Shown piece after piece: positions 3,580-47,281 of a stretch of DNA of 64,000 nucleotides. The notes beneath the pieces are model-generated. The model did no database searches. It was not told where the DNA came from and saw nothing but the letters and a program-made list of their open reading frames with translations. Numbering within the stretch: position 1 is the first letter of the stretch; each line of letters starts with the position of its first letter. Origin of the DNA: Gammaproteobacteria bacterium Ga0077536 (GTDB lineage Bacteria > Pseudomonadota > Gammaproteobacteria > Ga0077536); contig LNEL01000053.1 in assembly GCA_001464935.1 (NCBI GenBank), positions 8,897 to 72,896 on the forward strand, in the 5' to 3' direction. Position numbers and translations under genes: made by a program.

Positions 3580-3915
3580 ATGACACGCAAGAGCACCTAC
3601 CGCGTCACCTTTCACAATCAGGGCAAGGTCTACGAGATTTATGCCCGCAAAGTCGCCCAGGGCGGGCTGCTCGGGTTCGTGGAAATCGAAGACATCGTGT
3701 TCGGCGAGAAGACCACCGTCGTCGTCGACCCGAGCGAGGAGCACCTGAAGTCCGAATTCCAGGGCGTGCGGCGGACTTACATTCCGATGCACGCGGTGGT
3801 GCGCATCGACGAAGTCGAGAAGACGGGCCTGAGCAAGATCACCGATGCCGGCGGACGCGGCGACAAGGTCACGCCCTTCCCGGTGTTCACCGGCCACCCC
3901 GAACCGAAATCCTGA
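3580..3915 (+). CDS. DUF1820 family protein
   Basis: 111 aa. The motif YRVTFHNQGKVYEIYARKV...IPMHAVVRIDEV is typical of DUF1820 as I recall the family. Confidence 0.78.
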   Translation: MTRKSTYRVTFHNQGKVYEIYARKVAQGGLLGFVEIEDIVFGEKTTVVVDPSEEHLKSEFQGVRRTYIPMHAVVRIDEVEKTGLSKITDAGGRGDKVTPFPVFTGHPEPKS

Positions 3916-8067: not shown

Positions 8068-8261
8068 TTCGCGAGCTGTTCGATTTCTTCGTCGGTCAGT
8101 TCGCGCGCCTCGTCTTCGAGCATGATCGGAATGTCATCGCGAATCGGATAGGCGAGCCGCGCGCTCTTCGAGATCAGCTCCTGTCGCGCCTTGTCGTAAA
8201 TCAGCGGCCCCTTCGTCACCGGGCACACCAGCAGGTCAAGCAGCCTCTTGTCCATTGTCAC
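8064..8261 (-). CDS. Trm112/YcaR family protein (UPF0434)
   Basis: 65 aa. Motif [14 protein letters not shown]...[17 protein letters not shown] supports the call. Confidence 0.85.
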
Positions 8262-9267: not shown

Positions 9268-9274
9268 CGCCTGC

Positions 9275-9694
9275 TCACTCGCTTTCGCGCACTTTCATCG
9301 GAAAGGTCACGCGCGTGAGGCCCGCCAGCCGCGCGGCATCCATCGCATCGACTGCCAACTGGAACGCCGTCGCGCGATCGGCATTGATGACGACCGTCGG
9401 ATCGTCATGCTTCGCTTTCGCGTCGGCGAGCGCCTGCCTGATCGTGTCGACCTTGCCGTTCACCAGCGCCTGTCCGTCGACGTACACCTGGCCACGCCGA
9501 TCGATCGTCACATCGATCGCGTCCGGCAGCCTGTCGGGTGTTTCGCGGCTCGCGGACGGCAATGTCAGATCGATCTTCGACTGATCGACGAAGCGGGTCG
9601 ACACCATGAAGAAGATCAGCAACAGCAGCACCACGTCGATCAACGACGTGACGTTGATGTCGATGTCCTCGGTGCGTCGGGCCTGGAATCTCAT
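9275..9694 (-). CDS. exbD: ExbD/TolR family biopolymer transport protein
   Basis: 139 aa. N-terminal motif INVTSLIDVVLLLLIFFMV supports the call. Confidence 0.85.
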   Translation of the reverse strand: MRFQARRTEDIDINVTSLIDVVLLLLIFFMVSTRFVDQSKIDLTLPSASRETPDRLPDAIDVTIDRRGQVYVDGQALVNGKVDTIRQALADAKAKHDDPTVVINADRATAFQLAVDAMDAARLAGLTRVTFPMKVRESE

Positions 9695-10380
9695 GCCGCC
9701 GGCTTCCCGCTCTGCGCTTCCTGTTCGCGCTCGCCCTGCAGCACCTCGACCAGCTTGATCGATTCCTGCTCCATCGTGATGACCAGGGCTTCGACGCGCC
9801 CGCGGAAATAGCGATAGAAGTACAGCGCCGGAATCGCGACCAGCAGGCCGGCCGCGGTGGTGATCAGTGCCTGCCCGATGCCACCGGCGAGTTCCGCCGG
9901 ATCGCCCGCCCCGGCATCCTTCAGCGCGCCGAACATCTGGATCATGCCGAACACGGTCCCGAGCAGGCCGAGCAGCGGGGACACCGCGGCAATCGTGCCG
10001 AGGGTGTTCAGATAGCGCTCGAGTTCGAACACGACGAGGCGCCCGGCCTCCTCGATGCTCTCGCGAATCACGTAGCGCTCATGGCGGCGATTGACGAGGC
10101 CGGCGGCGAGCACCTGGCCGAGCGGGGAGCCGGCACGCAGCGCGCTCAGCCGCTGTTCGTCGAGTTTGCCGCTGCGCAGCCACTGCCACACCTGGGCCAC
10201 GAGATTGTCCGGGGCGACGCGCTTGCGCTGCAGGGACCAGAAGCGCTCGACCACGATGGCCATGGCGATCACTGACGCGAGCAGGATGGGCCACATGACC
10301 CAACCGCCCGCCTTGATGAGTTCTAACACGGCCGTTCGTTGCTCCGTTGGGGACGACGCCGGTGGCGTCAGCGGGGCCAA
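9691..10380 (-). CDS. exbB: MotA/TolQ/ExbB proton-channel family protein
   Basis: 229 aa. Motifs LGTIAAVSPLLGLLGTVFGMI and ALITTAAGLLVAIPA support the call. It overlaps exbD by 4 nt. Confidence 0.85.
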   Translation of the reverse strand: MAPLTPPASSPTEQRTAVLELIKAGGWVMWPILLASVIAMAIVVERFWSLQRKRVAPDNLVAQVWQWLRSGKLDEQRLSALRAGSPLGQVLAAGLVNRRHERYVIRESIEEAGRLVVFELERYLNTLGTIAAVSPLLGLLGTVFGMIQMFGALKDAGAGDPAELAGGIGQALITTAAGLLVAIPALYFYRYFRGRVEALVITMEQESIKLVEVLQGEREQEAQSGKPAA

Positions 10381-10417
10381 ACGTTACCAAAGCGGGCATG
10401 GACAGGGAAGCGAAGCG

Positions 10418-25847: not shown

Positions 25848-26357
25848 TTACTTCGCCTGGAACGGATGGGCGGACGAGCCCTTCTGCGCCACGACGGTCG
25901 CCGCTTTCGGCTCGCGCGCCACGGCGCGCTTGATCGATTCTTTGACGGCCTGGTAGTTGTAGTCCTGGATCTTCTTGTCGTCTTCGGCGAGCCAGTGGAT
26001 GAACACACCGACGCAGATGAAGACGTCATCGGCTTCGGCAGCCGGAATCGTGCCGTCTTCGACGCAATCCGCCACCGCCATCGCGACGCCGCGCTGGGCC
26101 GGGCCGAACATCTGCACGGCCTGCTTCGAGCCCTTGATCGTCACTTTGTTGAACATGACGGTGCTCGGCTTGGTCGCCAGGTTCGGCGCCACCACGGCGA
26201 GCAGGCTGCTGAATCCATCCTTGTTGTTGGTCACGCAATTGCAGAACGCTGCCTCGGCGGCGCTGCCACGCGGTCCCATGATGAGGTCGATGTGAGCGAC
26301 TTCGTTGCCATCGCCCACGAGGGATTCACCCACCAATACTCTGTCAATAACGGCCAT
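25848..26357 (-). CDS. fae: formaldehyde-activating enzyme
   Basis: 169 aa: [32 protein letters not shown]...[11 protein letters not shown] strong RBS (AGGAAAAGGAGAAAAA) precedes the start. Confidence 0.95.
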
Positions 26358-26494
26358 GAGTTTTTCTCCTTTTCCTGATAAATGTTGGCGGAACGCGGTT
26401 CCGCACGTCGCGTGCCGAAGCTGATGACCTCGCCACCGCGCCTGGCGGTGGCCTCAGGTTTGTGATGATGTCACCGCCGCGTGCGGGCAGTGTT

Positions 26495-27361
26495 TCAGCG
26501 GGCGTTCTGCAGCGCCGCCGCCAAATTCATCGCGAATAAGCTCGTAACCGTGAGATCCGCACTGGTGCCCGGATTCACGCCCCCGCGCTTGAGCTCGCAG
26601 TCGAAGGTTTGCACCAGAGCCGCGCGCTCCTCGGGATCTTCGCACGCTTTATACGCGGATTCTAGCTCGGCCGCCCGGCCCATCAGCCGCCGTGCGGCCT
26701 CTTCCCCGAGTTTGCGCTCGACATGGGTGTCGGGCATCGACGCGAGGAAACGCAGAAACGCCCGCACGACTGCGGCACTGAGGCTGTCGTCGGCATGCAG
26801 TCCTGCGCGCAGCGCGGGAATGCCGACATCGAACACATCGGCATAGTCGTGCACGTAGTTCCATGCAATCCGGTCGCGCTCCGCGGCCAGTTGCATCGCA
26901 TGCCGCAAATCGTGCGTGGGCGACGCCGCCACGTCTTCGGCCGCCGCGGTGCCGAGCCCGGCCGGGTGCGCGCGACGAATGGCGGCAAACGCGTCTTCGG
27001 CGTCGGCCAAATCGAGTCCGGCCAGGACCCGCGCGAGCCGCGTCCTCAGACTGCCCTCGAGCGGCCGCCGCACAGCCTGCGCGAGCGGCGCGGCCAGCAG
27101 CACGATGCCGAGATTGGTATTGCAGCCGACTGCCCCCCAGGTGGCATCGATCGCTTCGCGCACGGCCGCGCCGACGCCGCGCGCTGCGCGCGCGAGCGGA
27201 TCCGCGGTCACGCGCGCACTGGTCAGGAAATCGACCGCCTGCATGCCGTGCCCGGCCGACCCGATGCTGACATTGCCGGGTTTCGCCGCCAGCACATCGA
27301 AGCGGCAGGCATCGCGATACAGGGCCGCCACCAGCGGTGCCGGCAGCGTGTGACCCGTCAC
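26495..27361 (-). CDS. triphosphoribosyl-dephospho-CoA synthase (CitG/MdcB) family protein
   Basis: 288 aa with a GTG start. Motifs KPGNVS...CNTNLGIVLL...NPGTSADL support the call. Confidence 0.82.
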   Translation of the reverse strand: MTGHTLPAPLVAALYRDACRFDVLAAKPGNVSIGSAGHGMQAVDFLTSARVTADPLARAARGVGAAVREAIDATWGAVGCNTNLGIVLLAAPLAQAVRRPLEGSLRTRLARVLAGLDLADAEDAFAAIRRAHPAGLGTAAAEDVAASPTHDLRHAMQLAAERDRIAWNYVHDYADVFDVGIPALRAGLHADDSLSAAVVRAFLRFLASMPDTHVERKLGEEAARRLMGRAAELESAYKACEDPEERAALVQTFDCELKRGGVNPGTSADLTVTSLFAMNLAAALQNAR

Positions 27362-28300
27362 TCAGGCAGCACCGGCGGCACCGACCATCCGAGCGCGCCG
27401 CATCTTCGCCACGAAGGCGTCCAGCAGTCCGTCGGTGACCGCCTCGCCACAGGCCTGCTGCAGTCCCCACCACGCCGGCACCCCGTTCACTTCGCCGACG
27501 ACCCACTGTCCCGCGCCATCGCGCATCAGGTCGACACCCGCATAGTCGATGTCGAGCGCGGCCGCGGCACGTTCGGCGAGGTCGCGCAGCGCGCCGCTGT
27601 CGACCGGCGCCATTTCGCACCGCGCGCCCTGCGCGCGGTTCGTGATCCAGTGCTCGCTGGTGCGGCTCATTGCGTGCCGCGCGACACCGTCGACGACGAG
27701 CACGCGCCAGTCCCGGTACGGCGGACCGCCGCGTTCGACGAACTCCTGCAGATACCAGACGCCGTTGACCGGCGTCGCCGCGTCGAAGGCCGCCAGACTG
27801 TCGAGCAGCAACAGGCCTTCGCCCTGGGAACCGAACAGCGGCTTCGACACGAGGCGCACTCCGCGCCCGAGCGCGTCCGCCACGATCGCGCGCGCGGCCG
27901 CGCGCTGCTCCAGCACCCAGGTCCGCGGCGTCGCAATGCCGTGCAGTGCCAGCACAAAGCTCGTCAGCGCCTTGTCGACCGTACGCTCGATCGCGCGCCC
28001 CGTGTTGAATACCGGGACGTCGAGCAGGCTGAGCGCGTGCAACGCATCGAGCCGGAGTATCACTTCCTCGAGCGTACCGCCGGGCACGCCGCGCACGAAC
28101 ATTCCGGCCGGCAATTCATGCTCGAAGCCCGGCATCACGACGGTGGGGCCGGCCGGCCCCACCTCGAGATGGCAGTCCTTGAGGCTCAGCATGTCGACCG
28201 TGTAACCACGTCGCGCCAGCCCGCTGGCCAGCACGCGCCCGTGCCAGCCCGGGTCGTCAGTGGCGATGACGACCCGGGTCGAGGAACGCGGCGGCTTCAT
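27362..28300 (-). CDS. RimK-family ATP-grasp alpha-L-glutamate ligase (MptN-like)
   Basis: 312 aa. Motifs [12 protein letters not shown] and EVNGVPAW support the call. It abuts the citG-like gene with no gap. Confidence 0.82.
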
Positions 28301-29280
28301 CCGCCGAACGACAGATCCAGCAGGTCTTCGCGCAGCGCGCCGCCGTGGAAGGTCTTGCCGCTCCTGACCGCCGTGACCGCGCAGCGCGCCGGCGAGAACA
28401 GCATCGGATCAATCTGGTAGAAGTCGAACTTGTATTCCTTGAACACCTGCCCGAACGGCTTGCCGAAATCACGCGACGACGCGCTCGGCAGTTTCTCGGC
28501 GAGGTCACGCGCGTCGTCGTCGCTGGCGTCGACATAGAGCTGCACGAAGCCACCGAACAGGATTGCGTCATTCGTGCGGCCCATCGCGTTGATGAAATCG
28601 GCGGTCGGCGGCGGCACCGGCGCGGTGCCCGCGCCATCGACGATTTGCGCAAGCGGGAAATGCAGCGTGTGCACTTTATGCAGCGCCACTTCGAGCACGC
28701 GGCCGACGATCTGCACGCCACCGGCGAGGCTCGACGTCGGCGTCAGCACCAGCGTCAGTTGTCCCGGTGCGATGCCACAGTAGCTGATGATCTTGTCGAC
28801 CACTTCCGGCGGCGGCACCTTGTCGACTTCGAGCACCAGGCAGGTGTCGCCTGCCGGATTGCGGTAATCGAGTTCCTTGAACAGTTCTTCCTTGCTGCCG
28901 ATCGAACGCGCCGGACCGGATCCGAGTGCATGGAAGGCGCCCTTGCCCTGACCGTGACTGAGGCTCCAGCCCGCGTACTGCGAGCCGAGGCAGGCCGTGA
29001 CGGGATCGGTCGAATGCACGTCGACCTGCCACGCCCAGTGCCTGAACGCGGTACTGGCGCGGAACTGCACGGTGCCGAGACCGCCCATGCAGATTTCGGC
29101 AATGATCCGGCCGGCTTCGAGACCGCCGGGCACCTGGATGCCGGCGTCGACGATGCAGACGCCGTTGTCGAGATGGCTGACGCCGACGCGCAGGCGATCG
29201 GCTTCGTCGACGAGACGCTGGACCAGCGCGCGGCTGGCGCGGCTGACGTCGGCGCGTTTGAGTGTGGTGGAAGCTGTCAT
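28297..29280 (-). CDS. mch: methenyltetrahydromethanopterin cyclohydrolase
   Basis: 327 aa from ATG 29280 ([20 protein letters not shown]...GLGTVQF...[10 protein letters not shown]). Both ends have ATGA overlaps. Confidence 0.92.
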
Positions 29281-30482
29281 CGCGGGTCCCCTCGATTGGC
29301 CTGCCGACGTGGGCCGGCCCTGTTTGCTGTTGTGATGATCGGCTGCCGGGCCAGTGGCACGGCCGGATCGTCGATCCCGAGCAGGCGACACAACGCGATC
29401 ACGCGTTGCGCCAGGCGCTCACAGGCGGCTTCCGGCGTTGCACCAGCTGCCAGCACCGTGCACAGGGGAGCGCCCCGCGGCAACCGCGCCCCTGCACCGG
29501 GTCGGTCGGCAACCCAGGCTGGCCAGTCTAACGAGTTCGGAATCCGAATGGGATTGTCGAGCATGAGCACGGCGTGAGCGCGCGCGCGCGCGAGCGCCTG
29601 CGGCCGGCGCCACGACTGGCCGCGGCAGGCAGCCAGGTGGGCGCGAAAGGCCGCCGCCGGCGCGGCCACCAGTTCGACCGTCGCGGTCCAGCGCGGATTG
29701 ATTTCGATCAGCTGCCAGCGGTTGTGGGCGTCGACGACGAAATCGACGCCGCAGAGTCCGCGCAGGCCGAAACGGGCGGCCACGCGGCGCAGCGCGGCTT
29801 CGATGTGGCGGCACAGCCGCCGCGGCAGCAACTGGCCGCCAACGGCGCCGGCATAGACGAACGGGCTCGGCGAGGACGGCCAGAACAGGTGCGCGTTGTA
29901 ACCGAGTACGTCGAGCGTGCGGGCACCGGCAACGAAGACCACGGACATCGAGCGTCCGGCGCAGAACGCCTGCGCGTAATCGTGCGCTGCGAGCGCCGCG
30001 CCGGGCACGCCCCAGCGCACGTGATGGCCACCGGCCTGACCGCGAGTCTTGACGACCCATCGGCCGCGCGTCGGCACCCGATCGGTCGCGATGGCGGGCG
30101 TCGGCACGTCGAGTGCGCGCAGCCGCGCGTGCAGCCCGACGGGATCCGTCACTTCGGCCAGCCCTTCTCCGGCACTGCCGCAGACGTCGAAGGCCTGACC
30201 GAGCCGCGCCAGCAGCGGCGTCGCCGCTTCGAAACCGGCGCCCCAGACGAGGGGCAAGCGCGCGCCGCCAGCGAGGCGCCCCAGATCGGCGAGCAGTTGT
30301 CGTGGCCGGAAGCGGAAGCCGCGTGCGGCGGGCGTGACGATCAGGTGTTCGCTGGCGGCACGCGTGTCGTCGTCGCCAAAGAGATCGACGACCCGCGGTG
30401 CGTAACCGGCAGCGCGCGCCGCGTGCGCCAGCTGGCGCGCGCTGCGCGCCGCGATCAGGATCGGGTGGCGCGCCCTGCCCAC
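29277..30482 (-). CDS. ATP-grasp domain protein (C1-island associated, possibly MfnD-like)
   Basis: 401 aa. Motifs [14 protein letters not shown] and [21 protein letters not shown] are ATP-grasp core motifs. It lies between mtdB and mch. Confidence 0.72.
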
Positions 30483-30495
30483 GCCGCGCGGCGCG

Positions 30496-31404
30496 TCAAC
30501 GCTGCGCGACGATCGAGCGCGCGAGCGCGAAAGCTTCCTCGTGGGCGAGATAAATCGGTTCCGCCGATTCGTACATCTGCGCGAGCAGGCCGGTGTGGAC
30601 GCGATACTTCACATCGCCAATCGCGAGCGCGCCGAGACCGCGCGCGGTGCCGGTGGCGGTCTTGAGTTCGACCCCGTTGTCTTTTGCGGCCACGCCCTCG
30701 ATGCCGCTCGGCGGCACCGCGTTCGCATCGGCGGCTATCAGCAGGCGCCGCGCCCGGCCGATGGCCTGCGTATCGATCACGCGCACACCGGCCTTCGCCG
30801 CATTGAACACCACCTCGGCGTCTTCGAGAATGCGGTCGAGCGCGCCCGGCGCACCACCGTCCACGCCGTGGATGTCGATGTCATAACGCGAGTTGCATGC
30901 GTCAGCGCTCGCCTGCGCCTCCTGCGCGCCGCGGTTGCTGACGAGAAAGACCTCGGCGCCGCACCGCGCGGCCAGCAGCCCCACGCAGTTGCCGACCGGG
31001 CCGGTGCCGCCGAACACATAGACCTTGCGCCCCGTCAGGGTCGAGCCGTCGAGCTTGCCGAGCCAACGCTCAGCCAGCGCCACCATCGCCGCGGCGGTCG
31101 TGATGGCGCCGCTCGGATCGGCGAGCACCGAGACTTCGAACGGCGGCACCATGGCCTTCTTCGCCGCCTTCAGCATGTCGATCGCGAGGTGGAACTCGCG
31201 GCCGCCGATGAAGATGCCGGTGCGCCGCACGCCTTCGGGGCTGCGCGAAAAAATCGTGTCCTGCGTCAGCGGATGAATTTCTTCGAGCGTCACGTTGCAG
31301 TACGGGATCACCGCGTCGTAGCGCGCCTCATAGGCCATGTTGATGTCGAAGGGGCTGACATACTTCGTCGGGCTAAAGACGTGCAGCAGATAAGGGTCTT
31401 TCAT
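30496..31404 (-). CDS. mtdB: NAD(P)-dependent methylenetetrahydromethanopterin dehydrogenase
   Basis: 302 aa: MKDPYLLHVFSPTKYVSPFDINMAYEA...VFGGTGPVG. Confidence 0.92.
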   Translation of the reverse strand: MKDPYLLHVFSPTKYVSPFDINMAYEARYDAVIPYCNVTLEEIHPLTQDTIFSRSPEGVRRTGIFIGGREFHLAIDMLKAAKKAMVPPFEVSVLADPSGAITTAAAMVALAERWLGKLDGSTLTGRKVYVFGGTGPVGNCVGLLAARCGAEVFLVSNRGAQEAQASADACNSRYDIDIHGVDGGAPGALDRILEDAEVVFNAAKAGVRVIDTQAIGRARRLLIAADANAVPPSGIEGVAAKDNGVELKTATGTARGLGALAIGDVKYRVHTGLLAQMYESAEPIYLAHEEAFALARSIVAQR

Positions 31405-32452
31405 CGTCAGTGTCCTTGTCGTTGGATCGGATGAGCCAGACTGGCTGCGTCGGCGACAGGTCGTCGCCGCGTTCGCCGTGCCACCCGCAGCGGGCGCCGA
31501 CGTTGTTGCCAGTCACGATCTGACAGCGCAGCCCATCTGCCTTACGCGCGTCAATGAAGTCGGCGACCGCCGCGGCACTTGCCGCGTCGGGCGCGAACAG
31601 GAATCCGGTCGGCCCCCACGAACTCTGGCCGATGCCGGGCAGGCCGAACTCGCGCGCAGCCATCGTCAGCAGTTCGCCGACGCGCCGGCTCGTGTAGCGC
31701 CCGCCCTGGGCCGGCGCGAAATGATCGCCATTCGCCGCCTGCACGGTCGCCAGATGGCGCGCGAATGCCGCAAAATCGGCTTCGACGAGCGCCGGCATCA
31801 GGCCGACCAGAATCGTGCGCGCGAGTCCTGCGGCGGTGGCATCGGACATCGGCGCGAGCTGCGTGAAGGCCGCGCGCTCGCGCTGGCCGCTGAGGCCTTC
31901 GTCCATCGCGTCGAATACCAGCACGCAGCGCCAGTCGGCCGGAAAGGCCAGGCGCGCAAGCAGGGGCGGCGAGACGGTTGCCGGACCGCGCCCGCCGTCG
32001 ACGACGAAGCCGCCGCCTTCGAACGCCGCGATGCCGATGCCCGACCGCTGGCCGCGTCCGGCGAGCGCGGCGAGTTCGCGCGGCGGCAGATTGGCGCCGA
32101 GCGCGTGCGCGGCGGCGAGTGCGGCGGCGAGCGCGAGTTGTGTGCCGGAGCCGAGACCGGCGTGCGCGGGCGGCATCTGCTCCACCGTGACCTGCACCGC
32201 ACGCCCCGGCGCGCAGCGCGCGCTGACCCGCTCGAGGACGGGCAGCAGGCGCGACGGCGTCACGCCGTCGACACCGAAGCTGTCGGCGGCCGCGGCGCGC
32301 ACACAGGTGTCGAGACCATCGATGCACAAACCGATGCTGCCGAACTGCCGGTCGAGCGCGCCACTCAGATCGACGAATCCGAGATGCAGGCGCGCCGGCG
32401 CGACGACGACATGGCCGGCGGAGCGATCTTCGGTCACTTGGGTGGGTGTCAT
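31373..32452 (-). CDS. mptG: beta-ribofuranosylaminobenzene 5'-phosphate synthase
   Basis: The start is ATG 32452 (MTPTQV...). It has a GHMP-kinase-like fold (PAHAGLGSGTQLALA) and overlaps mtdB by 32 nt. Confidence 0.85.
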   Translation of the reverse strand: MTPTQVTEDRSAGHVVVAPARLHLGFVDLSGALDRQFGSIGLCIDGLDTCVRAAAADSFGVDGVTPSRLLPVLERVSARCAPGRAVQVTVEQMPPAHAGLGSGTQLALAAALAAAHALGANLPPRELAALAGRGQRSGIGIAAFEGGGFVVDGGRGPATVSPPLLARLAFPADWRCVLVFDAMDEGLSGQRERAAFTQLAPMSDATAAGLARTILVGLMPALVEADFAAFARHLATVQAANGDHFAPAQGGRYTSRRVGELLTMAAREFGLPGIGQSSWGPTGFLFAPDAASAAAVADFIDARKADGLRCQIVTGNNVGARCGWHGERGDDLSPTQPVWLIRSNDKDTDDERPLSAARL

Positions 32453-32500
32453 GCGCAGCGGTTCGTTGCGGGCGCGAGTCGCGCCCCACAATAGTAACCG

Positions 32501-33916
32501 ATGCCTCACGCTTGGGCAGCGGACAGCCGACAAGGTGGTCGTGCGTGGTCCGCGTGTGGTACTTTACGCGGACCCTCCACGGCCGTTGCGAGCGTGGCTG
32601 GCAAACCCGATAAGCCCAGTTCGATTGAACTTGCAGTTCGTAATGCCGTGCCTGAACAACTCGCCGAAAATTCCGATCCGTCCACGCTGCACCATGCGGT
32701 TGCCTGTCCGTTTTGCGGGCTGCTGTGCGACGACCTCGTCGTCGCCGAGACACGCGGCGCACTGAGCGTCACCGACAATGGCTGCGCGAAAGCGCGCATC
32801 GCCTATGCGCGGCCGGTCGTGGCGGCCTCGCCGCTCGTCAACGGCAAACCGGCCAGCCTCGACGATGCGCTGAACGCCGCGGCGCGACAGTTGAAGCGCA
32901 GCCGCCAGCCGCTGTTCGGCGGGTTCGGTACCGACATCGACGGGGCCCGCGCCGCGCTCGCGCTCGCTGAACGCTGCGGCGCCATCGTCGATCACCTGCA
33001 CGGCCGCGCGCTGGCGCACAACGTGCGCGTGCTGCAGACCCGCGGTCTCGCCACCACCACACTCGCCGAGGTGCGCAATCGGGCCGACCTCGTCGTGCTC
33101 GTGGGCGCCGATATCAACGACGACTTTCACGAATTCGCCCGCCGTTGCCTGCGCCCATCGTCAGCGCTCGCCGAGGAGCGGCTCGCCACGCGGCGCGTGT
33201 TCCACCTCGGGCCGGCGCGCGAGGCGCCGCGTCAGCCCGGCGTCGACGCCGAATCCATCGCGTGTTCGAGAGAAGAAGTCCTGGACCTGGTGAACGCACT
33301 GCGCGCGCTGCGTCTGCAACGTCAGCCGCGCCTGCGCGGCAAGCGGCTGCAGGCCGTGTCGAACCTCGCCGGCGCAATTGCAGCGAGCGAATATGCGGTG
33401 TTCGTGTGGACGCCTGGCCAACTCGGGGAAGACGGCGATCTGGTCATCGGTGCCGTCTGCGATCTGATCGCCGACATCAACCGCAGCAAGCGCGCGGCGG
33501 GCCTCGCACTCGGCGGCAACGATGGCGGTCAGAGCGCCATCGCCACCGCCGCGTGGCTGACAGGCTATCCGCTCCAGCTGTCCTACGCCGGCCGTACGCT
33601 CGAATACGATCCGCTGCGCTATGACACCGCGCGCCTGCTCGCCGCTGGCGCGGTCGATTCGCTGCTGTGGGTCAGCACCTTCAATCCGCATCCGGCGCCG
33701 GTGACGGACCTGCCGCAGACCGTCATCGGCATGCCGACGGCGCAGGCGTCGTCGATGCGCGGTGTGTACCTGCCGGCGGGCACGCCCGGACTCGATCACC
33801 GCGGCCAGTTGATTCGCACCGACGGCGTCGTCGCGCTGCCGCTGCCGCAGCTGCGCGACGTGGCGCTGCCGTCGGCGGCATTCCTGCTCCACGAAATCGC
33901 GAAACGGATGGGTTGA
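32501..33916 (+). CDS. fhcB: formylmethanofuran dehydrogenase subunit B homologue
   Basis: The conserved body begins around ACPFCGLLCDDL. ATG 32501 lies only 48 nt from the divergent mptG start, so the true start may be an internal GTG at about 32594 or 32650. Confidence 0.82.
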   Translation: MPHAWAADSRQGGRAWSACGTLRGPSTAVASVAGKPDKPSSIELAVRNAVPEQLAENSDPSTLHHAVACPFCGLLCDDLVVAETRGALSVTDNGCAKARIAYARPVVAASPLVNGKPASLDDALNAAARQLKRSRQPLFGGFGTDIDGARAALALAERCGAIVDHLHGRALAHNVRVLQTRGLATTTLAEVRNRADLVVLVGADINDDFHEFARRCLRPSSALAEERLATRRVFHLGPAREAPRQPGVDAESIACSREEVLDLVNALRALRLQRQPRLRGKRLQAVSNLAGAIAASEYAVFVWTPGQLGEDGDLVIGAVCDLIADINRSKRAAGLALGGNDGGQSAIATAAWLTGYPLQLSYAGRTLEYDPLRYDTARLLAAGAVDSLLWVSTFNPHPAPVTDLPQTVIGMPTAQASSMRGVYLPAGTPGLDHRGQLIRTDGVVALPLPQLRDVALPSAAFLLHEIAKRMG

Positions 33917-33919
33917 GGC

Positions 33920-35596
33920 ATGGCGGGCAGATCGATCACCGAACTACGCGGCGGTCGGGTCTACGACCCGGCCCACGGCATCGACGGCGTCGTCCAGTCG
34001 ATCTATCTCTGCGACGGCCAAGTCGTCGGCGCACCGTCGGATCCGTCCGACATCAAAGTCAGCCATGACCTCAGCGGTTGCATCGTGATGGCGGGTGGCA
34101 TCGACATCCACACGCACATCGGCGGCGGCAAGGTGAACCTCGCGCGCATGATGCTGCCCGAGGATCATCGCCAGGATCTCGTCGCGCGCGGCCGCCATCC
34201 GCGCATGGGCAGCGGCCACGCAGCGCCGTCCACCCTGACGGTCGGCTATCGCTACGCCGAGATGGGTTATACCGCCTGCTTCGAACCGGCCATGCTCGCG
34301 GCGAACGCGCGCCAGGCACACCTGGAGATGGGCGACACCCCGATAGTCGACAAGGGCGCCTACGTGCTCCTCGGCAATGACGACCTGATGCTGCGCATGC
34401 TGGCTGGCAAGGAACCCGGTGTGAAAGTCCGCGATTACATTGCATGGACGCTGCGCGCGGCACAGGCGATGGCAATCAAGGTCGTGAACCCGGGCGGCAT
34501 CAATGCGTTCAAGTTCAACCAGCGCAAGCTCGATCTCGACGAGCAGAACGCCTATTACGGCATCACGCCGCGGCAAGTCCTGCTGGCGCTGGCCGACGGC
34601 ATCCGTGAACTGGGCCTGCCGCATCCGCTGCACATCCACGGCTGCAATCTCGGCGTGCCGGGCAACCTGGACACGACGCTCGCGACGATCGCCGCGCTCG
34701 ATGGCCTGCCGGCACACCTGACGCACGTGCAGTTCCACAGCTACGGAACGGAGGGTGATCGCAAGTTCTCTTCCGGCGCGGCCGCGGTGGCCGAAGCCGT
34801 GAACCGCAGCCCGAACATCTCGATGGACGTCGGCCAGATCCTGTTCGGCCAGACGGTTACCGAGTCAGGCGACAGCATGCGCCAGTACGCGGGCAGCGCC
34901 TTCGGCAGTCCGAAGAAGAGCGTGCTGATGGACATCGAATGCGACGCCGGTTGCGGCGTCGTGCCGTTCAAGTACAAGGACAAGAATTTCGTCAACGCGC
35001 TGCAATGGGCCATCGGCCTCGAGCTGTTCCTGCTCGTCAGCGATCCGTGGCGCCTGTTCCTGACCACCGATCACCCGAACGGCGCGCCGTTCACGACCTA
35101 TCCGCACCTGATTCGCCTGCTGATGGATCGCTCCTTCCGCAATGACATGCTGAAGACCATCAACCCGGACGCGGCGGCGGCGAGCACGCTGGCGTCGATC
35201 GAGCGCGAGTACACGCTGTATGAAATCGCGATCATGACGCGCGCGGGACCGGCACGCAGTCTGGGGCTCGGCAATCTTGGGCATCTCGGCGTCGGCGCGC
35301 GTGGCGATGTGGCGGTCTATGTCGATCATCCCGATCGCGAGCGCATGTTCACCACGCCGCGCTTCGTGTTCAAGGCCGGCGAGATGATCGTGCGCGATGG
35401 ACGCGTGATCGCGAGCCCGACAGGCGCGACGCACGTGATGCGTGTCGATTACGACACCTCCATCGAACGCACGCTGGACGCCTACTTCGAGCGCTACATG
35501 ACCGTCAGCCGGCGCAACCTCGCGGTAGCCGACGGCGAAATCGACGGCGACGGCCGCGGCAGTCTGATTGCGCACGGCGCGCGGCGATCATCATGA
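33920..35596 (+). CDS. fhcA: formylmethanofuran dehydrogenase subunit A homologue
   Basis: 558 aa of the amidohydrolase superfamily (GGIDIHTHIGGG). Confidence 0.92.
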   Translation: MAGRSITELRGGRVYDPAHGIDGVVQSIYLCDGQVVGAPSDPSDIKVSHDLSGCIVMAGGIDIHTHIGGGKVNLARMMLPEDHRQDLVARGRHPRMGSGHAAPSTLTVGYRYAEMGYTACFEPAMLAANARQAHLEMGDTPIVDKGAYVLLGNDDLMLRMLAGKEPGVKVRDYIAWTLRAAQAMAIKVVNPGGINAFKFNQRKLDLDEQNAYYGITPRQVLLALADGIRELGLPHPLHIHGCNLGVPGNLDTTLATIAALDGLPAHLTHVQFHSYGTEGDRKFSSGAAAVAEAVNRSPNISMDVGQILFGQTVTESGDSMRQYAGSAFGSPKKSVLMDIECDAGCGVVPFKYKDKNFVNALQWAIGLELFLLVSDPWRLFLTTDHPNGAPFTTYPHLIRLLMDRSFRNDMLKTINPDAAAASTLASIEREYTLYEIAIMTRAGPARSLGLGNLGHLGVGARGDVAVYVDHPDRERMFTTPRFVFKAGEMIVRDGRVIASPTGATHVMRVDYDTSIERTLDAYFERYMTVSRRNLAVADGEIDGDGRGSLIAHGARRSS

Positions 35597-36489
35597 AAAT
35601 CAACGGCACGTTCATCGAGGACACTTTCGCCGAAGCCTTCCCGATGAAGGCGACGCGACTGATCATCACCGCCTACAACGCCACCTGGGCCAATCACGCG
35701 GCGAACGCGTTGACAGGCTTCGCAACCTCCGTGATCGCCTGCGGTTGCGAGGCCGGCATCGAACGCCAGCTCAAGCCGTCGGAAACTCCCGACGGGCGGC
35801 CCGGCGTGGCGGTGCTGTTGTTCGCGATGAGCAACAAGGAACTGACGAAGCAGCTGCAGAACCGCGTCGGCCAATGCGTCCTGACGTCGCCCACGAGCGC
35901 GTGCTACAGCGGCATCGCCGAAGGCGACCCGCTGCCACTCGGCAAGACGCTGCGCTTCTTCGGCGACGGCTACCAGATTGCCAAGAAGCTCGGTCCCACC
36001 CGCTACTGGCGCGTCCCCGTGATGGACGGCGAATTCCTGTGCGAGGACACCACCCGCGTGACCAAGGCGGTCGGCGGCGGCAATTTCCTGATCCTCGCGA
36101 CGAACCAGGCGCAGGCCCTTGCGGCCAGCGAACGGGCCATCACGGCGATGCGCAAAGTGCCAGGCGTGATCATGCCGTTCCCCGGTGGCGTCGTGCGCTC
36201 GGGCTCCAAGGTCGGGTCGAAGTACAAGACGCTGCCCGCTTCGACGAATCATCGTTATTGTCCGACCCTGCGCGGCGTCGTCGATTCGGCACTGTCGGAC
36301 CAGGTCGGCGCCGTGCTCGAAATCGTCATCGACGGCCTGACCGCGCCGGCCATCGACGAGGCGACGCGTGTCGGCATCCGCGCCGCCTGCACGCTTGGCA
36401 GCAAGCGCGGCATTCTTGCCATCAGCGCCGGCAACTATGGCGGCAATCTCGGCCCCTTCCACTTCAAACTGCGCCAGATCCTGAAATGA
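35593..36489 (+). CDS. fhcD: formylmethanofuran--tetrahydromethanopterin N-formyltransferase
   Basis: 298 aa: MKINGTFIEDTFAEAFPMKATRLIITA.... It has an ATGA overlap with fhcA. Confidence 0.93.
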   Translation: MKINGTFIEDTFAEAFPMKATRLIITAYNATWANHAANALTGFATSVIACGCEAGIERQLKPSETPDGRPGVAVLLFAMSNKELTKQLQNRVGQCVLTSPTSACYSGIAEGDPLPLGKTLRFFGDGYQIAKKLGPTRYWRVPVMDGEFLCEDTTRVTKAVGGGNFLILATNQAQALAASERAITAMRKVPGVIMPFPGGVVRSGSKVGSKYKTLPASTNHRYCPTLRGVVDSALSDQVGAVLEIVIDGLTAPAIDEATRVGIRAACTLGSKRGILAISAGNYGGNLGPFHFKLRQILK

Positions 36490-41987: not shown

Positions 41988-42764
41988 TCAGCGGGCGGCG
42001 GCGCTCTGCTGGTAGGGCTGCACGGACTGGATGCGCAGCGTTTCGCGCAGCAGCGGCGGCGCTCCCGCTTCCTTCGCAGGCACCTCCGAGCGCACTTCGT
42101 AGACATAGCCTGGCAGTTCATCGGCGACGATGACCGAATAGGACTTGTCGGCAAATTTTTCGAAGGCCTCTCGCTTCGGGTCGTCCTTGTACGGCTCGAA
42201 GCTGATCTGCTTCGCGGCGTACTCACGGCCATCGAAGCTGATCTTCACCGGCTTCACGTCCGCCTGTTCGGCCAGTGCGAACTTGATGCGCCGCTGGAAA
42301 TAGCGCCACCGTTCGCGCGATTTGCCATCCGGATCGGTCAGGCGGTTCATCTCGTACACGTCGCCCTGAAAATAGACCTTGAGCACCGGGTTGACGTCCG
42401 TGCTGTCGGCCGGCGGCACCGGGAAGTTGCGTTGACCGGTGAAGAAATTCACCGACGCCGCCTTCATGCCGTCCGCATGCACTTTCGAGATCGTGAACTC
42501 CACGCGGTCCTCGAACCCTTCTTCGTAAGTGCCATCCTTGACGAACGAATAAGTGATGACCGTTGGCGCCGTGATGGCGCGCAATTGATCGGTCAGCCAC
42601 AGCAGGGTCTCGGCCTCCGAGAACTTGACCTCTTCCGAGGCCGCGGCCGGCGGCGTGTCTGCCGCCACGCAGAACCCGGACCAGGCGGCCAGCAGCGCGG
42701 CGCACAGGCCACCGAGCAGGCGGCTGCGGGCCGGTACGGAAGTCGGGCGCAGTGCCTCAGTCAT
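41988..42764 (-). CDS. secreted protein of unknown function, translationally coupled to the xoxJ-like gene
   Basis: 258 aa. It has a signal peptide (LLGGLCAALLAAWSGFCVAAD) and normal composition. An 8-nt overlap (ATGACTGA) links it to the upstream gene. I do not recognise the family. Confidence 0.68.
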   Translation of the reverse strand: MTEALRPTSVPARSRLLGGLCAALLAAWSGFCVAADTPPAAASEEVKFSEAETLLWLTDQLRAITAPTVITYSFVKDGTYEEGFEDRVEFTISKVHADGMKAASVNFFTGQRNFPVPPADSTDVNPVLKVYFQGDVYEMNRLTDPDGKSRERWRYFQRRIKFALAEQADVKPVKISFDGREYAAKQISFEPYKDDPKREAFEKFADKSYSVIVADELPGYVYEVRSEVPAKEAGAPPLLRETLRIQSVQPYQQSAAAR

Positions 42765-43641
42765 CGTCGTCCTCTTTCGGTTTCTGGTTCAGTTGCAGTT
42801 CGAGCAGCGGCACACCGTAGCTCGCCAGCAACTTGTCGATGTCACCCTGGTTCTTCTCGATCAGTGCATTGAGCTGTTCGAGGCGCTTGTCGTCGCCGTG
42901 TCGCACGGCCATGACGATCTGGAAATCGAACTTGATGCCCTCGTCCTCGTGCAGGGGGACCACGACGAGTTCCGGATGCTTCTTCGCGAGATGTCCGGCG
43001 AGCGGGCCCCACAGGAAGCTCACGTTCGCGTTGCCGCTCATCAATTCGCGCTCGACGACATCGGCCGGGCTCTGCTTCGGGTCACCGGACATCATCGGAT
43101 GCGGTTGCGACTGTTCAATGAGTCCCAGGCGGTAGATCCATTCGGTGGTCGGCCCCTGGTCCCAGATGCCAATCTTGAGCTGCTGCTTCTGTTCGTCAGT
43201 CGCCTGCTTCAGATCCGACTGGGATGCGATCCAGTCGACGCCGGCGCCCTTCCGGTACACCAGCGCCCACGTCGAGCGCATGTACGGGCGGGTGGTGGCG
43301 GCAAGCTCGAAGTTGTCGACCACGCCCATGACGTAGTCGCACTTGTAGCTGCCGTCATCGGTTTCATTGTTCTTCAGCGTCGCGCGGATGAACCCCATGC
43401 GCTGCGGGAACCAGGTATAGGTCGCCTTCTGTCCCAGTTGCGCGGCGAACATTTCCGCAATCCTGTTTTCGTATCCCGCGCCGTCCTCGTGCGACATCGG
43501 CATCGAATACGGCGGCGCACAGACCTTGAATGTCGGGTCATCCCCGGCGCTCGCGCCGAGCGCCAGGCAGCTTGCCGCGCCCGCCAATACCAGCTGTACG
43601 AGGGGGATCAACCGCCAGGGTTGCCTGGTCATCGCGTTCAT
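42757..43641 (-). CDS. xoxJ: MxaJ/XoxJ-like quinoprotein-dehydrogenase-associated periplasmic binding protein
   Basis: The start is taken at ATG 43641 (MNAMTRQPW...) after GAGGAG; ATG 43686 is an alternative. Motifs FKVCAPPYSMPMS...YENRIAEMFA and the SBP type-3 fold resemble MoxJ. Confidence 0.82.
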   Translation of the reverse strand: MNAMTRQPWRLIPLVQLVLAGAASCLALGASAGDDPTFKVCAPPYSMPMSHEDGAGYENRIAEMFAAQLGQKATYTWFPQRMGFIRATLKNNETDDGSYKCDYVMGVVDNFELAATTRPYMRSTWALVYRKGAGVDWIASQSDLKQATDEQKQQLKIGIWDQGPTTEWIYRLGLIEQSQPHPMMSGDPKQSPADVVERELMSGNANVSFLWGPLAGHLAKKHPELVVVPLHEDEGIKFDFQIVMAVRHGDDKRLEQLNALIEKNQGDIDKLLASYGVPLLELQLNQKPKEDDDD

Positions 43642-43690
43642 TGTTGCATCGCTCCTCATCACGTGGCTGGTATCGGCGTCGGGCATGTGC

Positions 43691-44146
43691 TCAGGGCAGC
43701 TTGCCGGCCTTCTGCAGTTCCTGCTTCATTTTCTTGATGGTGCGCGCGACCATGTTCTTGCCGAGCTTGACGTCATTGACGGACTTGTCGAGCGCGTCGA
43801 GGTTCCCCGGTGCACCGTCGCCGACCACGACGGCGCCCACCATGCCGGTGGTCATGTGCGGGTTGCACTTGTAGATATAGGCACCTTCCTTGTCGAGCGT
43901 CACGCTGAAGCCCTCTTCGCCCATCTTGGCCTTCCACTTCTGCGCACCGTCGGGAATCATGCCATCGATGGACTCGGTGTCGTGTCCGGCCATCTGCATG
44001 AACTTGATCGAGTCACCCGGCTTCGCATAGGTCACGAGCGGCACCCAGTTGGTGACCACGCCCTTGATGATGTGCTCCTCCGCCATTGCGTTGGCGCTCA
44101 GGCCCAGACCCAGCGTCATCGCCGCCCAGAATCGAATCGTCGTCAT
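43691..44146 (-). CDS. pseudoazurin (type-1 copper cupredoxin)
   Basis: 151 aa from ATG 44146 after GGAGAAAG. It has a signal peptide. PGDSIKFMQMAGHDTESIDGMIPDGAQKWKAK...GAYIYKCNPHMTTGMVGAVVVGD aligns with Alcaligenes pseudoazurin as I recall it, including the His, Cys, His and Met ligands. Confidence 0.9.
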   Translation of the reverse strand: MTTIRFWAAMTLGLGLSANAMAEEHIIKGVVTNWVPLVTYAKPGDSIKFMQMAGHDTESIDGMIPDGAQKWKAKMGEEGFSVTLDKEGAYIYKCNPHMTTGMVGAVVVGDGAPGNLDALDKSVNDVKLGKNMVARTIKKMKQELQKAGKLP

Positions 44147-44430
44147 TATTGCTTTCTCCAGAACGTGTTTCTCAAAACCAAGCCTGCTGCGGGCGCGCGT
44201 CACTGACGTGCCCTGCGCCTGAATCTATCTCTGGCGCCGTGAATCGGCGCTTAACCCCTGTTCGTCTGCGCGGCCCCGGCCGCACAGTGTTTGCGTTCAC
44301 CCCTCGGGCGGGTGCGCAGAAATCAATATGGATTCCGATGTCCGTCCGGACGACACCGACTGCGTCGCATGTCGAGTCCGTTGGGGTGTGGCAGGCCTCG
44401 GAAGTTCCGCGCGGGAGAGGGCCCACTCGA

Positions 44431-44464
44431 AGAAAACCCGGCACCTTCGAAAAGGTGCCGGGTT
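44431..44464 (-). terminator. rho-independent terminator after xoxF
   Basis: The minus strand reads AACCCGGCACC-TTTTCGAA-GGTGCCGGGTT followed by TTCTTCG. It lies 39 nt after the xoxF stop. Confidence 0.7.
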
Positions 44465-44502
44465 GATCAGCGCTTCAATCCGAAAGCTGACCCAAGGTCA
44501 GC

Positions 44503-46365
44503 TTACGGCAGGCTGAAGACGCTCAGCACGCCACCCAGACGGGTGTAGCTGCCGAGGCCTTTGTACGCGCCCACAGCGCCCAGACCGTCGGTGTCCTGAA
44601 TCAGGCCAGCCGCCATGCCGATACCGGCCCAGCCGCCAACGCCCGACAGCACGCCAACATACTGCTTGCCTTTGTGGCCCCAGGTGTTGACGTTGCCGAT
44701 GATCCCGGACGGGGTCTTGAACTGCCACAGGAGCTTGCCGCTCTTGGCGTCGATCGCTTTGAGGTAGCCCTCGAGCGTGCCGTAGAACACGACGTCGCCC
44801 GCGGTCGCCAGCGCGCCACTCCAGACGGAGAAGCGTTCCGGAATCGACCACACGATCTTGCCTTCGTCAGCATTCCAGGCAATGAAGTTGCCCAGGTTGC
44901 TGTTCTCGGCATTGTTGCCGAACTCCGGACCGGGTGACACCCGACCGGCCGGGAACATGCTGAGGACGGCGTTCACGTACGGCTGACCCGCGACGTATTC
45001 ACCACCGCTGACCGGCTCGTAGTTCATGCAGACGTGGTTCGTCGGCACGTAGAACAGGCCAGTCTTCGGGCTGTACGCCGCCGGCTGCTGGTCTTTCGAA
45101 CCAAGCGCGGCCGGGCAGATGTTCGTCGTGTTGACGTCTTCACCACCCGCGTGGGTGCTGTACTTCGCGACGACCTGCGGCCGGCCCGTCTTCATGTCGA
45201 CGTGCGTGGCCCAGTTCACAGCCGGGTCGAACTTCTCGGCAACCAGCAGTTCGCCAGTCACGCGATCAAGCGTGTAGCCGAAGCCGTTGCGGTCGAAGTG
45301 AACCAGTGCCTTGCGGTCCTGGCCCTTGACCTTCATGTCCACGAGGATCATTTCGTTGATGCCGTCGTAGTCCCACTCGTCGTGCGGGGTCATCTGGTAG
45401 ACCCACTTGGCCACGCCGGTGTCGACGTCACGCGCGAAAATCGTCATCGACCACTTGTTGTCGCCCGGACGAACGACCGGGTTCCAGGTGGACGGGTTGC
45501 CGGATCCATAGAACATCAGGTTCTGTTCTTTGTCGTACGGCCACCAGCCCCAGGTCGAACCGCCACCGATCTTCCACTGGTCACCCTTCCAGGTTTTCAG
45601 CGAGGAGTCCGGGCCGACGGGCTGACCCATCGAGGTCGTCTTCGCGGGATCGATCAGCATGTCCGCATCCGGACCCATGCTGTAGGCGCGCCACACACGC
45701 TTGCCGGTCTTCAGGTCGTAGGCATTCATCCAGCAGCGGACGCCGAACTCGGCGCCGGACATGCCGGTGAACACTTTGTCCTTCATGACATGCGGAGCGT
45801 TGGTGTTCGTCTGGCCAAGCTTGGGATCGCCATTCTTGACCGACCACACGAGGGCGCCGTCTTTCGCGTTCAGCGCGACCAGCGTCGTATCCGCCTGCTG
45901 CAGGATGATCTTGCCGTCGCCGTAGCCGAGACCACGGTTGACCGTGTCGCAGCACATGACCGGAACGGTTTCGTCGTAGTCCTGCACCGGGACGTATTCC
46001 CACACAACTTCGAGCGTATCAAGATTGATCGCGAAGACGTTGTTCGGGAACGCCGCGTGGATGAAGAGCGTGTCGTGCGGCAGACCCGTCGAGGACGACG
46101 GCAGCACCAGCGGACCACCTTCGTGGCCACGCAACACACCCGTGGAGAACGTCCACGCCGCCTGGAGCTTGCCGGCATTCGTGCTGTTGATTTGATTCAA
46201 CTCCGAATAACGCCAGTTCCAGTAGTTACCACCGGGATATACCCAGTAGTTGGGGTCCTGCATCAACTTCTCCAATTCGGCATTTGCCATGACTGCCCCG
46301 GAAGCAGTCACTGCCGTCAGAGAGGCCGCTGCCACGAGCCATCGTTTGAACGATGCTTTTCTCAT
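44503..46365 (-). CDS. xoxF: lanthanide-dependent PQQ methanol/ethanol dehydrogenase, XoxF type
   Basis: 620 aa from ATG 46365 after GAAGGAGGAGG. It has a signal peptide, the vicinal CC ([10 protein letters not shown]), Trp-docking repeats, and [11 protein letters not shown], where the extra Asp after DY is diagnostic for Ln-type XoxF (MxaF has DYAG). Confidence 0.94.
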
Positions 46366-46787
46366 GACCTCCTCCTTCACACTATGCTGTTAACAGTTTT
46401 GTGTTGATCTCTACGCAGTTTTGACTCCGCATCGCGCCGAGATCGAGAGCGCGCAACAGAGTATAGCCAAACCGGCACGCACGGCTGTCCGCGCGCGACG
46501 CAAAGTGAATCGATGATGTCGGCCCGGCGGCGGGCCATGAGAATGCTGAACGGGTAACGATCGGGCGCAGCGGGAGCGGAATGCGGGGAGCGGAAACGGC
46601 GAGAGGTGGTCATGCAAACCCTTGTCCAGCGATATTGGTCTCTCACCGCATGACGCATGCGATGCCTGAGCAGTCGACGCGCCTTGACCACATTCCCCAA
46701 AAGGCGCGCCGCCACACTCATGTTGTCTCGCGGAGTCCATGCCACCGCGCCCGACATGGCGTCATCGTGGATGGTGCGAGCGTCCCG

Positions 46788-46815
46788 ATTATAGAGAAAA
46801 ACCGTGCCCCGGCAA
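46788..46815 (-). promoter_or_regulatory. sigma70-like promoter candidate about 420 nt upstream of xoxF
   Basis: The minus strand reads TTGCCG-N16-TATAAT, with a perfect -10. This is sequence-only evidence. Confidence 0.35.
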
Positions 46816-46882: not shown

Positions 46883-47281
46883 TTACTGCGGTGCAGCGAT
46901 TTTCTTGGGTGCGATGACCGGGACATTGGTCTGGCGCGCGGCGCCCACGAAGCAGCGCTTCTTCGCGTCAGCACGGGCCGTGTCGAGCTTGCCGACCAGC
47001 TCCTTCGCGCGCGGGTTGTCACGGAAGATGCCTCCCTTGTCGCCCGGCATCTGCTTGTAGATCTCGTAGGTGCGCGCCTCGGTGAAATCCTCGAAGCTGA
47101 CCTGCTGCATCAGGACATCCACCGAGCAGCTGCAGCGCTGCAGGTTGTCGATATTCTGGCCGCCGTTTTCCTGCATGCAGGTCAGCACGGAATCGACGCG
47201 GTCCATGGTCGGGTACTCGAAGGCACTGGCCGCGACGGGCGCGCCGAGCACGCCTATCAGCACGATGCTTGCTGTCTTCAT
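46883..47281 (-). CDS. small secreted Cys-containing protein of unknown function
   Basis: 132 aa from ATG 47281 after GTGGAGAAG. It has a signal peptide (MKTASIVLIGVLGAPVAASA) and 4 Cys in the mature part. I do not recognise the family. Confidence 0.62.
   Translation of the reverse strand: MKTASIVLIGVLGAPVAASAFEYPTMDRVDSVLTCMQENGGQNIDNLQRCSCSVDVLMQQVSFEDFTEARTYEIYKQMPGDKGGIFRDNPRAKELVGKLDTARADAKKRCFVGAARQTNVPVIAPKKIAAPQ

Follow-up and report, generated by a model that had tools for sequence, protein, structure and literature searches.

A xoxF methanol dehydrogenase locus with a pseudoazurin-like gene in the position of xoxG

Which protein accepts the electrons of a methanol dehydrogenase whose gene is followed by that of a copper protein in the place of a cytochrome? 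To our knowledge, all characterized methanol dehydrogenases donate to a dedicated c-type cytochrome. The question is raised by a stretch of 64,000 nucleotides (nt) from contig LNEL01000053.1 of Gammaproteobacteria bacterium Ga0077536, hereafter the window, in which the initial annotation described a lanthanide-type xoxF followed by a pseudoazurin gene (here paz, with the product Paz) where the gene of the cytochrome XoxG was expected. It proposed that the blue-copper protein may replace or supplement XoxG as an electron acceptor or relay. Our comparison of the window with related genomes lends good support to the view that, within a conserved Xox module, a cupredoxin has taken the place of XoxG, and we consider it probable that Paz belongs to the Xox electron chain.

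A copper protein in the cytochrome position

The locus comprises five minus-strand genes between 41.9 and 47.3 kb of the window, i.e., U166, xoxF, paz, a xoxJ-like gene, and U258 (coordinates in Table 1). All elements that the initial annotation had placed here, namely, xoxF, the hairpin behind it, the pseudoazurin gene, the xoxJ-like gene, and the gene of a secreted protein without a family (U258), were found in place.

On sequence grounds, the xoxF product is assigned to the lanthanide methanol dehydrogenases of the XoxF5 type, because it is far closer to XoxF5 structures (6DAM, 937 bits; 6OC5, 868 bits) than to MxaF (~586 bits), XoxF2, or ethanol dehydrogenases (PedH/ExaA, 280-314 bits); 4MAE scored 627 bits. 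The protein also passes TIGR03075, the family of methanol/ethanol dehydrogenases that use pyrroloquinoline quinone (PQQ), with 690.5 bits against a cut-off of 480. It carries a vicinal Cys-Cys pair (MCCD) and the WDYDG motif, and the earlier description of a lanthanide-type enzyme thus stands. The DYD stretch, which is identical to that of 6DAM in the alignment, includes the extra lanthanide-coordinating Asp; MxaF has DYA at this position. The listed open reading frame (ORF) spans 44503-46380 on the minus strand, with the likely start codon an ATG at 46365 preceded by AGGAGG.

Paz retains an intact set of blue-copper ligands and carries a signal peptide, which places it in the same compartment as XoxF, the periplasm. 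The full His/Cys/His/Met ligand set ascribed to it is indeed present: H55, C94, H97, and M102 are invariant across 32 homologues, follow the pseudoazurin type of spacing (C-x2-H-x4-M), and align to the ligands of 3TU6 and 1PMY, its best matches in the PDB. The top 21 PDB matches were all pseudoazurins (E ~1e-19), and the alignments reach the C-terminal part of these solved proteins, up to query residue 138-149. Paz matches PF00127 and reaches 86.5 bits against TIGR02375, the NCBIfam pseudoazurin model; since this is under the cut-off of 109.85, we use the name pseudoazurin-like. Its relatives form a compact subfamily (18 clusters at E <= 1e-30), and partial alignments to plasmid-borne pseudoazurins show 36-49% identity. 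Two giant relatives (P0352, 1452 amino acids; P0355, 1353 amino acids) contain eight or nine tandem pseudoazurin-like domains.

The gene after paz had been called xoxJ-like, and its product bears this out by passing TIGR03871 (241.6 bits; cut-off, 212) and by having XoxJ 6ONP as its best solved relative (E = 1.6e-31), while it scores just 80.8 bits against the MoxJ model TIGR03870 (cut-off, 258). Depending on which of two candidate starts is used (43686 or 43641), the gene begins 4 or 49 nt past the Paz stop codon, in agreement with the spacing first reported, and the ORF coordinates confirm that it overlaps U258 by 8 nt.

The nearest annotated relatives of XoxF, at 67-68% identity, are encoded on plasmids of cultured Azoarcus sp. 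KH32C (pAZKH) and Roseomonas marmotae. The Azoarcus cluster has the order xoxF, a cytochrome c gene (132 amino acids), a gene for a xoxJ-type binding protein, and genes for hypothetical proteins of 242 and 116 amino acids; in R. marmotae, xoxF, a cytochrome c gene, and a binding protein gene follow one another, with two hypothetical genes just upstream. The plasmid cytochrome is XoxG-like, as its top PDB match is XoxG 6ONQ and, of the families, TIGR03874 ("c-type cytochrome, methanol metabolism-related") fits it best. Of the Azoarcus hypothetical proteins, one is homologous to U258 (E = 9e-27) and the other to U166 (E = 2e-19), and tblastn with them also matched both hypothetical genes of Roseomonas; these homologues lie at 8169-9250 and 3324-4330 of the two cytochrome-type loci (L081 and L082, respectively). 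By this comparison, the clusters share one module of xoxF, carrier, xoxJ, U258, and U166, in which only the carrier differs, being a cytochrome in one kind and a cupredoxin in the other. With the carrier swapped, the other four families the same, and no trace of xoxG, this is the pattern expected of non-orthologous displacement. We regard the equivalence of the Paz and XoxG slots as well supported and as the strongest argument for the replacement idea.

No secreted CxxCH protein of the XoxG/cytochrome cL kind is encoded with xoxF in the window, the order there being xoxF-paz-xoxJ and not the canonical xoxF-xoxG-xoxJ. The initial annotation had found no ORF with a heme-c motif between 41.8 and 47.4 kb, and this holds on a wider scale. 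Indeed, the CxxCH codon pattern is absent from 41-48 kb in any frame and occurs at a single site in the whole window, at 12015 on the plus strand. The ORF around that site (11847-12200, plus strand) was rejected as a cytochrome, as it is antisense within a ComEC gene (10418-12466) and has no family match. Cytochrome genes were likewise not found in the 10 kb past either window end, i.e., within the ~84 kb examined around the xox cluster, nor were credible CxxCH ORFs found within the ~10-kb flanks of the xoxF-paz loci of other genomes described below. The scattered CxxCH ORFs at related loci proved to be antisense artifacts or unrelated small cytochromes, the exceptions being XoxG-like genes at two loci (L065 and L067). 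In addition, neither the window nor any xoxF-paz locus was matched by tblastn with two XoxG-like cytochromes, not even in the long stretch that follows xoxF, and therefore no xoxG remnant lies between xoxF and paz.

Recurrence of the arrangement across genomes

A Paz profile was run against one genome for each GTDB species, and the 80 best loci were retained. Nearly all of them are labelled as uncultured Gammaproteobacteria, and they come from groundwater, lakes, seawater, sponges, soils, and drinking-water filters. Labels of metagenome-assembled genomes (MAGs) such as Klebsiella and Hydrogenophaga were judged unreliable and not used for taxonomy. The gene xoxF lies directly upstream of paz in 46 of the 80 loci, so that the order is conserved in at least 46 species-level genomes as far as xoxF-paz is concerned. 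Furthermore, xoxJ lies directly downstream of paz in 58 loci, U258 follows xoxJ in 49, U166 lies upstream of xoxF in 32, and paz occurs in tandem copies in 8. In 54 loci both flanks could be read; of these, xoxF and xoxJ are present in 32, xoxJ alone in 6, nothing but a degenerate XoxF homologue in 1, and neither gene in 15.

Across the loci, XoxF is between 97% and 62% identical to that of the window, and Paz between 82% and 38%. In a neighbor-joining tree, the Paz-linked XoxF proteins formed one group, sister to two XoxG-linked XoxF proteins; accordingly, much of the recurrence reflects vertical inheritance of one old, long-kept event. Paz-XoxJ pairs also occur without an adjacent xoxF, for example between leuCD and ftsK in MAGs of the USC-gamma type (USC, upland soil cluster), and U258 accompanies the pair at two such loci (L055 and L068). 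The link between Paz and XoxJ would therefore hold independently of the adjacency of xoxF, and we take it as a second line of support for a role of Paz in the Xox module.

The single locus with a degenerate enzyme (L025) encodes, at 8031-9872, a XoxF homologue that is 58% identical and has WHYGASG in place of WDYDG, which suggests a loss of the catalytic and lanthanide-binding aspartates; a Paz gene follows, and xoxJ is missing. A search for cultured or plasmid-borne xoxF-paz arrangements found none, as the plasmid matches were ordinary pseudoazurins with at most 49% identity; the Methylophaga match lies in a copper-resistance context.

Electron transfer and the alternative readings

Our tentative reading, to which we give slightly less than an even chance, is that the locus is a Xox module for methanol oxidation and that a periplasmic Paz has taken over in it from the XoxG cytochrome. 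Pseudoazurin potentials are about +230 to +280 mV, within the range of cytochromes cL and XoxG, and because of this overlap a step from XoxF to Paz is thermodynamically reasonable. In the mechanism we propose, methanol would reduce PQQ in XoxF, and the reduced PQQ would pass its electrons to Cu(II)-Paz in two one-electron steps via an exposed patch around His97. From Cu(I)-Paz they would pass on to a terminal oxidase or, under anoxia, to enzymes of the Nir/Nor/Nos type, to which the pseudoazurin of Paracoccus is known to donate (PMC12848317). That Paz is the direct acceptor of XoxF is about as probable as the module reading itself, i.e., just short of even. The fuller proposition, in which Paz would be the direct physiological acceptor of a PQQ-only XoxF, U258 and U166 would be accessories, and a new leader would control xoxF across a widespread uncultured clade, is rather more doubtful. 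As to the original suggestion that a blue-copper protein replaces or supplements XoxG, its displacement part has been strengthened by the conserved module (46 loci, the same slot, and the Paz-XoxJ pairs), whereas direct acceptance from XoxF is a hypothesis.

A number of observations weigh against the reading of Paz as the acceptor in a Xox module, and they are set out here with the alternatives on which they bear. First, we know of no demonstrated case in which a PQQ-only dehydrogenase reduces a cupredoxin directly. Second, charge is uninformative: the isoelectric points of mature Paz and XoxF are 8.1 and 5.6, and those of the Paz family spread from 5 to 9.7, for which reason electrostatic complementarity was dropped as an argument. 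Third, the 15 loci with neither xoxF nor xoxJ show that paz can stand apart from both. At five marine loci of low guanine-plus-cytosine content (0.42-0.43; L023, L027, L029, L039, and L041), a lone paz abuts the end of fdsA, at ~10001-10450 where it is in mid-locus and at 2897-3316 in L039, and these loci lack xoxF, xoxJ, and U258, as though the Xox genes had been lost or moved and the carrier had stayed behind. Fourth, distant tandem Paz genes lie beside a convergent gene for a XoxG-like cytochrome (TIGR03874) at two loci (L065, 5124-6960; L067, 10001-11977). This cytochrome has a long low-complexity N-terminal linker, its neighbors are the housekeeping genes speA, speE, and mnmG, and there is no xoxF nearby; the arrangement fits a chain in which a cytochrome is followed by a cupredoxin.

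The third and fourth observations are those that would be anticipated if Paz were a relay, with an unlinked c-type cytochrome (XoxG4-like or other) accepting the electrons first and Paz coming next, in the role of cytochrome cH or c550, or acting in parallel, to supply oxidases or enzymes of denitrification. The paz genes beside fdsA would then belong to a general carrier. A precedent exists in Methylococcaceae, whose xoxF5 has no cytochrome gene in its vicinity and for which an unlinked, unrelated, and highly expressed XoxG4 has been proposed as acceptor (PMC5723320, PMC5874918); a gene missing from the neighborhood may therefore still be present in the genome, and the same could hold here. 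We nevertheless consider a relay unlikely, as the cytochrome of the nearest XoxG clusters sits in exactly the position of Paz, which looks like displacement and not addition, no xoxF-paz locus retains a cytochrome alongside Paz, and the ~84 kb around the cluster of the window hold none.

Still less probable, in our view, is that Paz is an unrelated neighbor that serves denitrification or general respiration and whose position was merely inherited in one lineage. The transcription signals speak for this alternative and also weaken the reading of Paz as the direct acceptor. The reported terminator hairpin 3' of xoxF is upheld by its fold energy, its U-run, and its conservation: it has a 13-bp stem and a 4-nt loop followed by UUUUCUUC (the U-rich tail), with a folding free energy of about -24 kcal/mol, and the 103-nt stretch that holds it has a folding z of -3.8 versus shuffles. 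A scan for consensus terminators did not list it. An equivalent hairpin, with differing stem sequences, lies 43-92 nt past the xoxF stop in 44 of 48 loci, and given this conservation xoxF probably has its own transcript. Upstream of paz, the direct repeat TTAAG-N6-TTCAC is the sole match in the window (versus 0.06 expected by chance), and its consensus across loci, TTCAG-N6-TTCAC, is found in 18 of 47 loci, at a distance of 80-136 nt upstream of paz, where 0.01 per 220 nt is the background. This motif may be a response-regulator site or a promoter element for paz-xoxJ-U258. It is absent from the xoxF upstream region of the window and present in that of 2 of 37 loci, approximately the chance rate, and our search for any motif common to the xoxF and paz upstream regions found none. 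Given the conserved terminator and the motif on the paz side, co-transcription or co-regulation of xoxF and paz is not established, and both features argue for separate transcription units.

The single clade of Paz-linked XoxF, with its largely vertical recurrence in place of independent events, would also suit an unrelated neighbor, as would the 15 loci without xoxF and xoxJ. Against it, the order persists while XoxF drops to 62% and Paz to 38% identity, the Paz-XoxJ pair has moved jointly to other contexts, and paz, xoxJ, and U258 are tightly packed, with the close paz-xoxJ spacing and the xoxJ-U258 overlap described above. Moreover, nir, nos, and oxidase genes were not found among the window ORFs checked. 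Finally, a non-redox role of Paz in copper handling or Xox maturation, conceivable in that XoxJ, U258, and U166 are accessories of unassigned function and the operon may be a maturation unit, is very improbable, since a full type-1 ligand set, which is invariant here and spaced as in pseudoazurins, marks a cupredoxin as an electron-transfer protein, and XoxF has no copper requirement.

Returning to the reading of Paz as the carrier that displaced XoxG, we postulate that transcription of xoxF would start at a promoter of its own, run through a long structured leader, and stop at the strong terminator, and that paz-xoxJ-U258 would form a second unit with its own upstream element, perhaps reached by read-through as well. 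If this reading is correct, a cupredoxin would be a new kind of partner for PQQ enzymes, the first step of a methanol respiratory chain would be free of heme, and methanol oxidation would be tied to copper besides lanthanides. Metagenomic calls of methylotrophy often need xoxF, xoxG, and xoxJ together, a rule that would miss a paz-type system, and the habitats concerned would range from groundwater, lakes, and seawater to sponges, soils, drinking-water filters, and, for the contig of the window itself, activated carbon. No description of a cupredoxin arrangement with xoxF, xoxG, xoxJ, or methanol dehydrogenase was found in open-access papers and bioRxiv full text, which agrees with the earlier view that such an electron route is undescribed.

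Accessory genes, the xoxF leader, and known systems

The features of the locus are collected in Table 1. U258 has 253 unnamed homologues and no family match. Its AlphaFold model (predicted local distance difference test score [pLDDT], 89) retrieved LprG, LolA, and LppX at probability 1.0 with Foldseek, at TM-scores of 0.3-0.4 and root-mean-square deviations above 10 Å; because of these low TM-scores, its assignment as a LolA/LprG-like open barrel is tentative. U166 has 94 homologues, all unnamed, and no Pfam match. It is a helical protein of ~110 residues when mature, with three invariant cysteines (C35, C50, and C52) and a nearly invariant fourth (C110), and a fold search with its model (pLDDT, 76) gave no match in the PDB. 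Both families are also present where the carrier is a XoxG-like cytochrome; this makes them candidates for general and not Paz-specific Xox functions, and they may be unrecognized general Xox components.

Table 1. Features of the xox locus in the 64,000-nt window
Feature	Position	Strand	Description
U166	46883..47281	minus	small secreted protein, 132 amino acids, all-helical, four conserved Cys; upstream of xoxF
xoxF promoter	46788..46815	minus	predicted, sigma-70-like, TTGCCG-N16-TATAAT
xoxF 5' leader structured element	46376..46468	minus	conserved across 32 sequences
xoxF	44503..46365	minus	predicted XoxF5-type lanthanide-/PQQ-dependent methanol dehydrogenase, signal peptide
Intrinsic-terminator-like hairpin	44431..44464	minus	3' of xoxF
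Direct-repeat motif TTAAG-N6-TTCAC	44239..44254	minus	upstream of paz
paz	43691..44146	minus	pseudoazurin-like type-1 copper protein, 151 amino acids, Sec signal peptide
xoxJ-like gene	42757..43686	minus	periplasmic binding protein; alternative start 43641
U258	41988..42764	minus	conserved secreted protein, no family

The only promoter-like match in 41.7-47.6 kb lies ~420 nt upstream of the xoxF start codon, and an alignment of 17 loci revealed that GGTTGCCGG and TCTCTATAATC are conserved in it. The xoxF mRNA thus appears to have a ~420-nt leader that starts at this predicted promoter. The final ~95 nt of the leader form an element that is conserved in 32 loci, including those at 62-69% XoxF identity. 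All 32 sequences fold alike, into a hairpin with the outer stem ACUCU/GGAGU and an inner stem whose sequence varies between lineages while the pairing is always kept. The loop has an invariant GAUCUC that is complementary to a GAGAUC ~25 nt downstream, and this helix is retained in all 32 sequences, among which there are one double change and nine G-U changes; it could form a pseudoknot or an alternative helix. The leader and intergenic regions have no Rfam match, and neither Azoarcus nor Roseomonas showed such an element in front of xoxF. Lanthanide control of xoxF is only partly understood, and we propose the leader as a candidate regulatory RNA.

The window also contains a methylotrophy island with Fae, MtdB-like, tetrahydromethanopterin (H4MPT)-synthesis, and Fhc subunit genes and an NAD (nicotinamide adenine dinucleotide)-linked formate dehydrogenase, which ends 220 nt from U258. 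More specifically, a complete-looking set for H4MPT-dependent formaldehyde oxidation (Fae, MtdB-like, ATP-grasp and GHMP-kinase-like cofactor genes, FhcA/FhcD) occupies 25848-36489. Other periplasmic redox enzymes flanking the xox cluster were not found among the window ORFs checked. The sequence of the window is also present in JALHNP010000002.1 (assembly GCA_022843415.1, 210 kb) and in JGI metagenome 3300002461, and part of its contig was recovered in an activated-carbon metagenome.

Compared with canonical xoxFGJ clusters (XoxF5 with a XoxG3-type cytochrome, as in Methylobacterium extorquens [6OC5/6ONQ/6ONP], Azoarcus, and Roseomonas), the locus is alike in its XoxF5 type and in having XoxJ directly after the carrier. 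The Azoarcus and Roseomonas clusters further resemble it in their U258 and U166 homologues and in the methylotrophy genes nearby. The difference is that a heme-c protein lies between xoxF and xoxJ there and a cupredoxin here. In addition, the gap after xoxF is 150-480 nt with a strong terminator in paz loci versus ~90-100 nt in the Azoarcus and Roseomonas clusters, and U166 lies upstream of xoxF, unlike in the Azoarcus order. The Methylococcaceae system is similar in that it has a gammaproteobacterial XoxF5 (6DAM from M. buryatense, the best structural match) and no adjacent cytochrome gene; there, no carrier gene of any kind is mentioned near xoxF (PMC5723320, PMC5874918), whereas here a copper protein gene adjoins it. 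XoxG cytochromes from unrelated lineages have been described (PMC5874918, PMC5723320) and are a precedent for carrier swapping.

Paz shares its fold family, ligands, ligand spacing, and periplasmic location with the pseudoazurins of A. cycloclastes, A. faecalis, Paracoccus, S. meliloti (3TU6), and M. extorquens (1PMY), and differs from them in its genomic partners, which are xoxF and xoxJ versus nirK. The transfer we propose has its closest parallels in methylamine dehydrogenase, which uses tryptophan tryptophylquinone (TTQ) and donates to amicyanin, and in the type II quinohemoprotein alcohol dehydrogenase, which donates to azurin (PMC8348568). In these systems as well, the electrons of a quinoprotein dehydrogenase in the periplasm go to a small blue-copper protein that is sometimes encoded nearby. 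The partners of amicyanin and azurin use TTQ or an internal heme-c domain, whereas XoxF has PQQ only and no heme domain, and direct transfer from PQQ to copper would therefore be new for this enzyme family.

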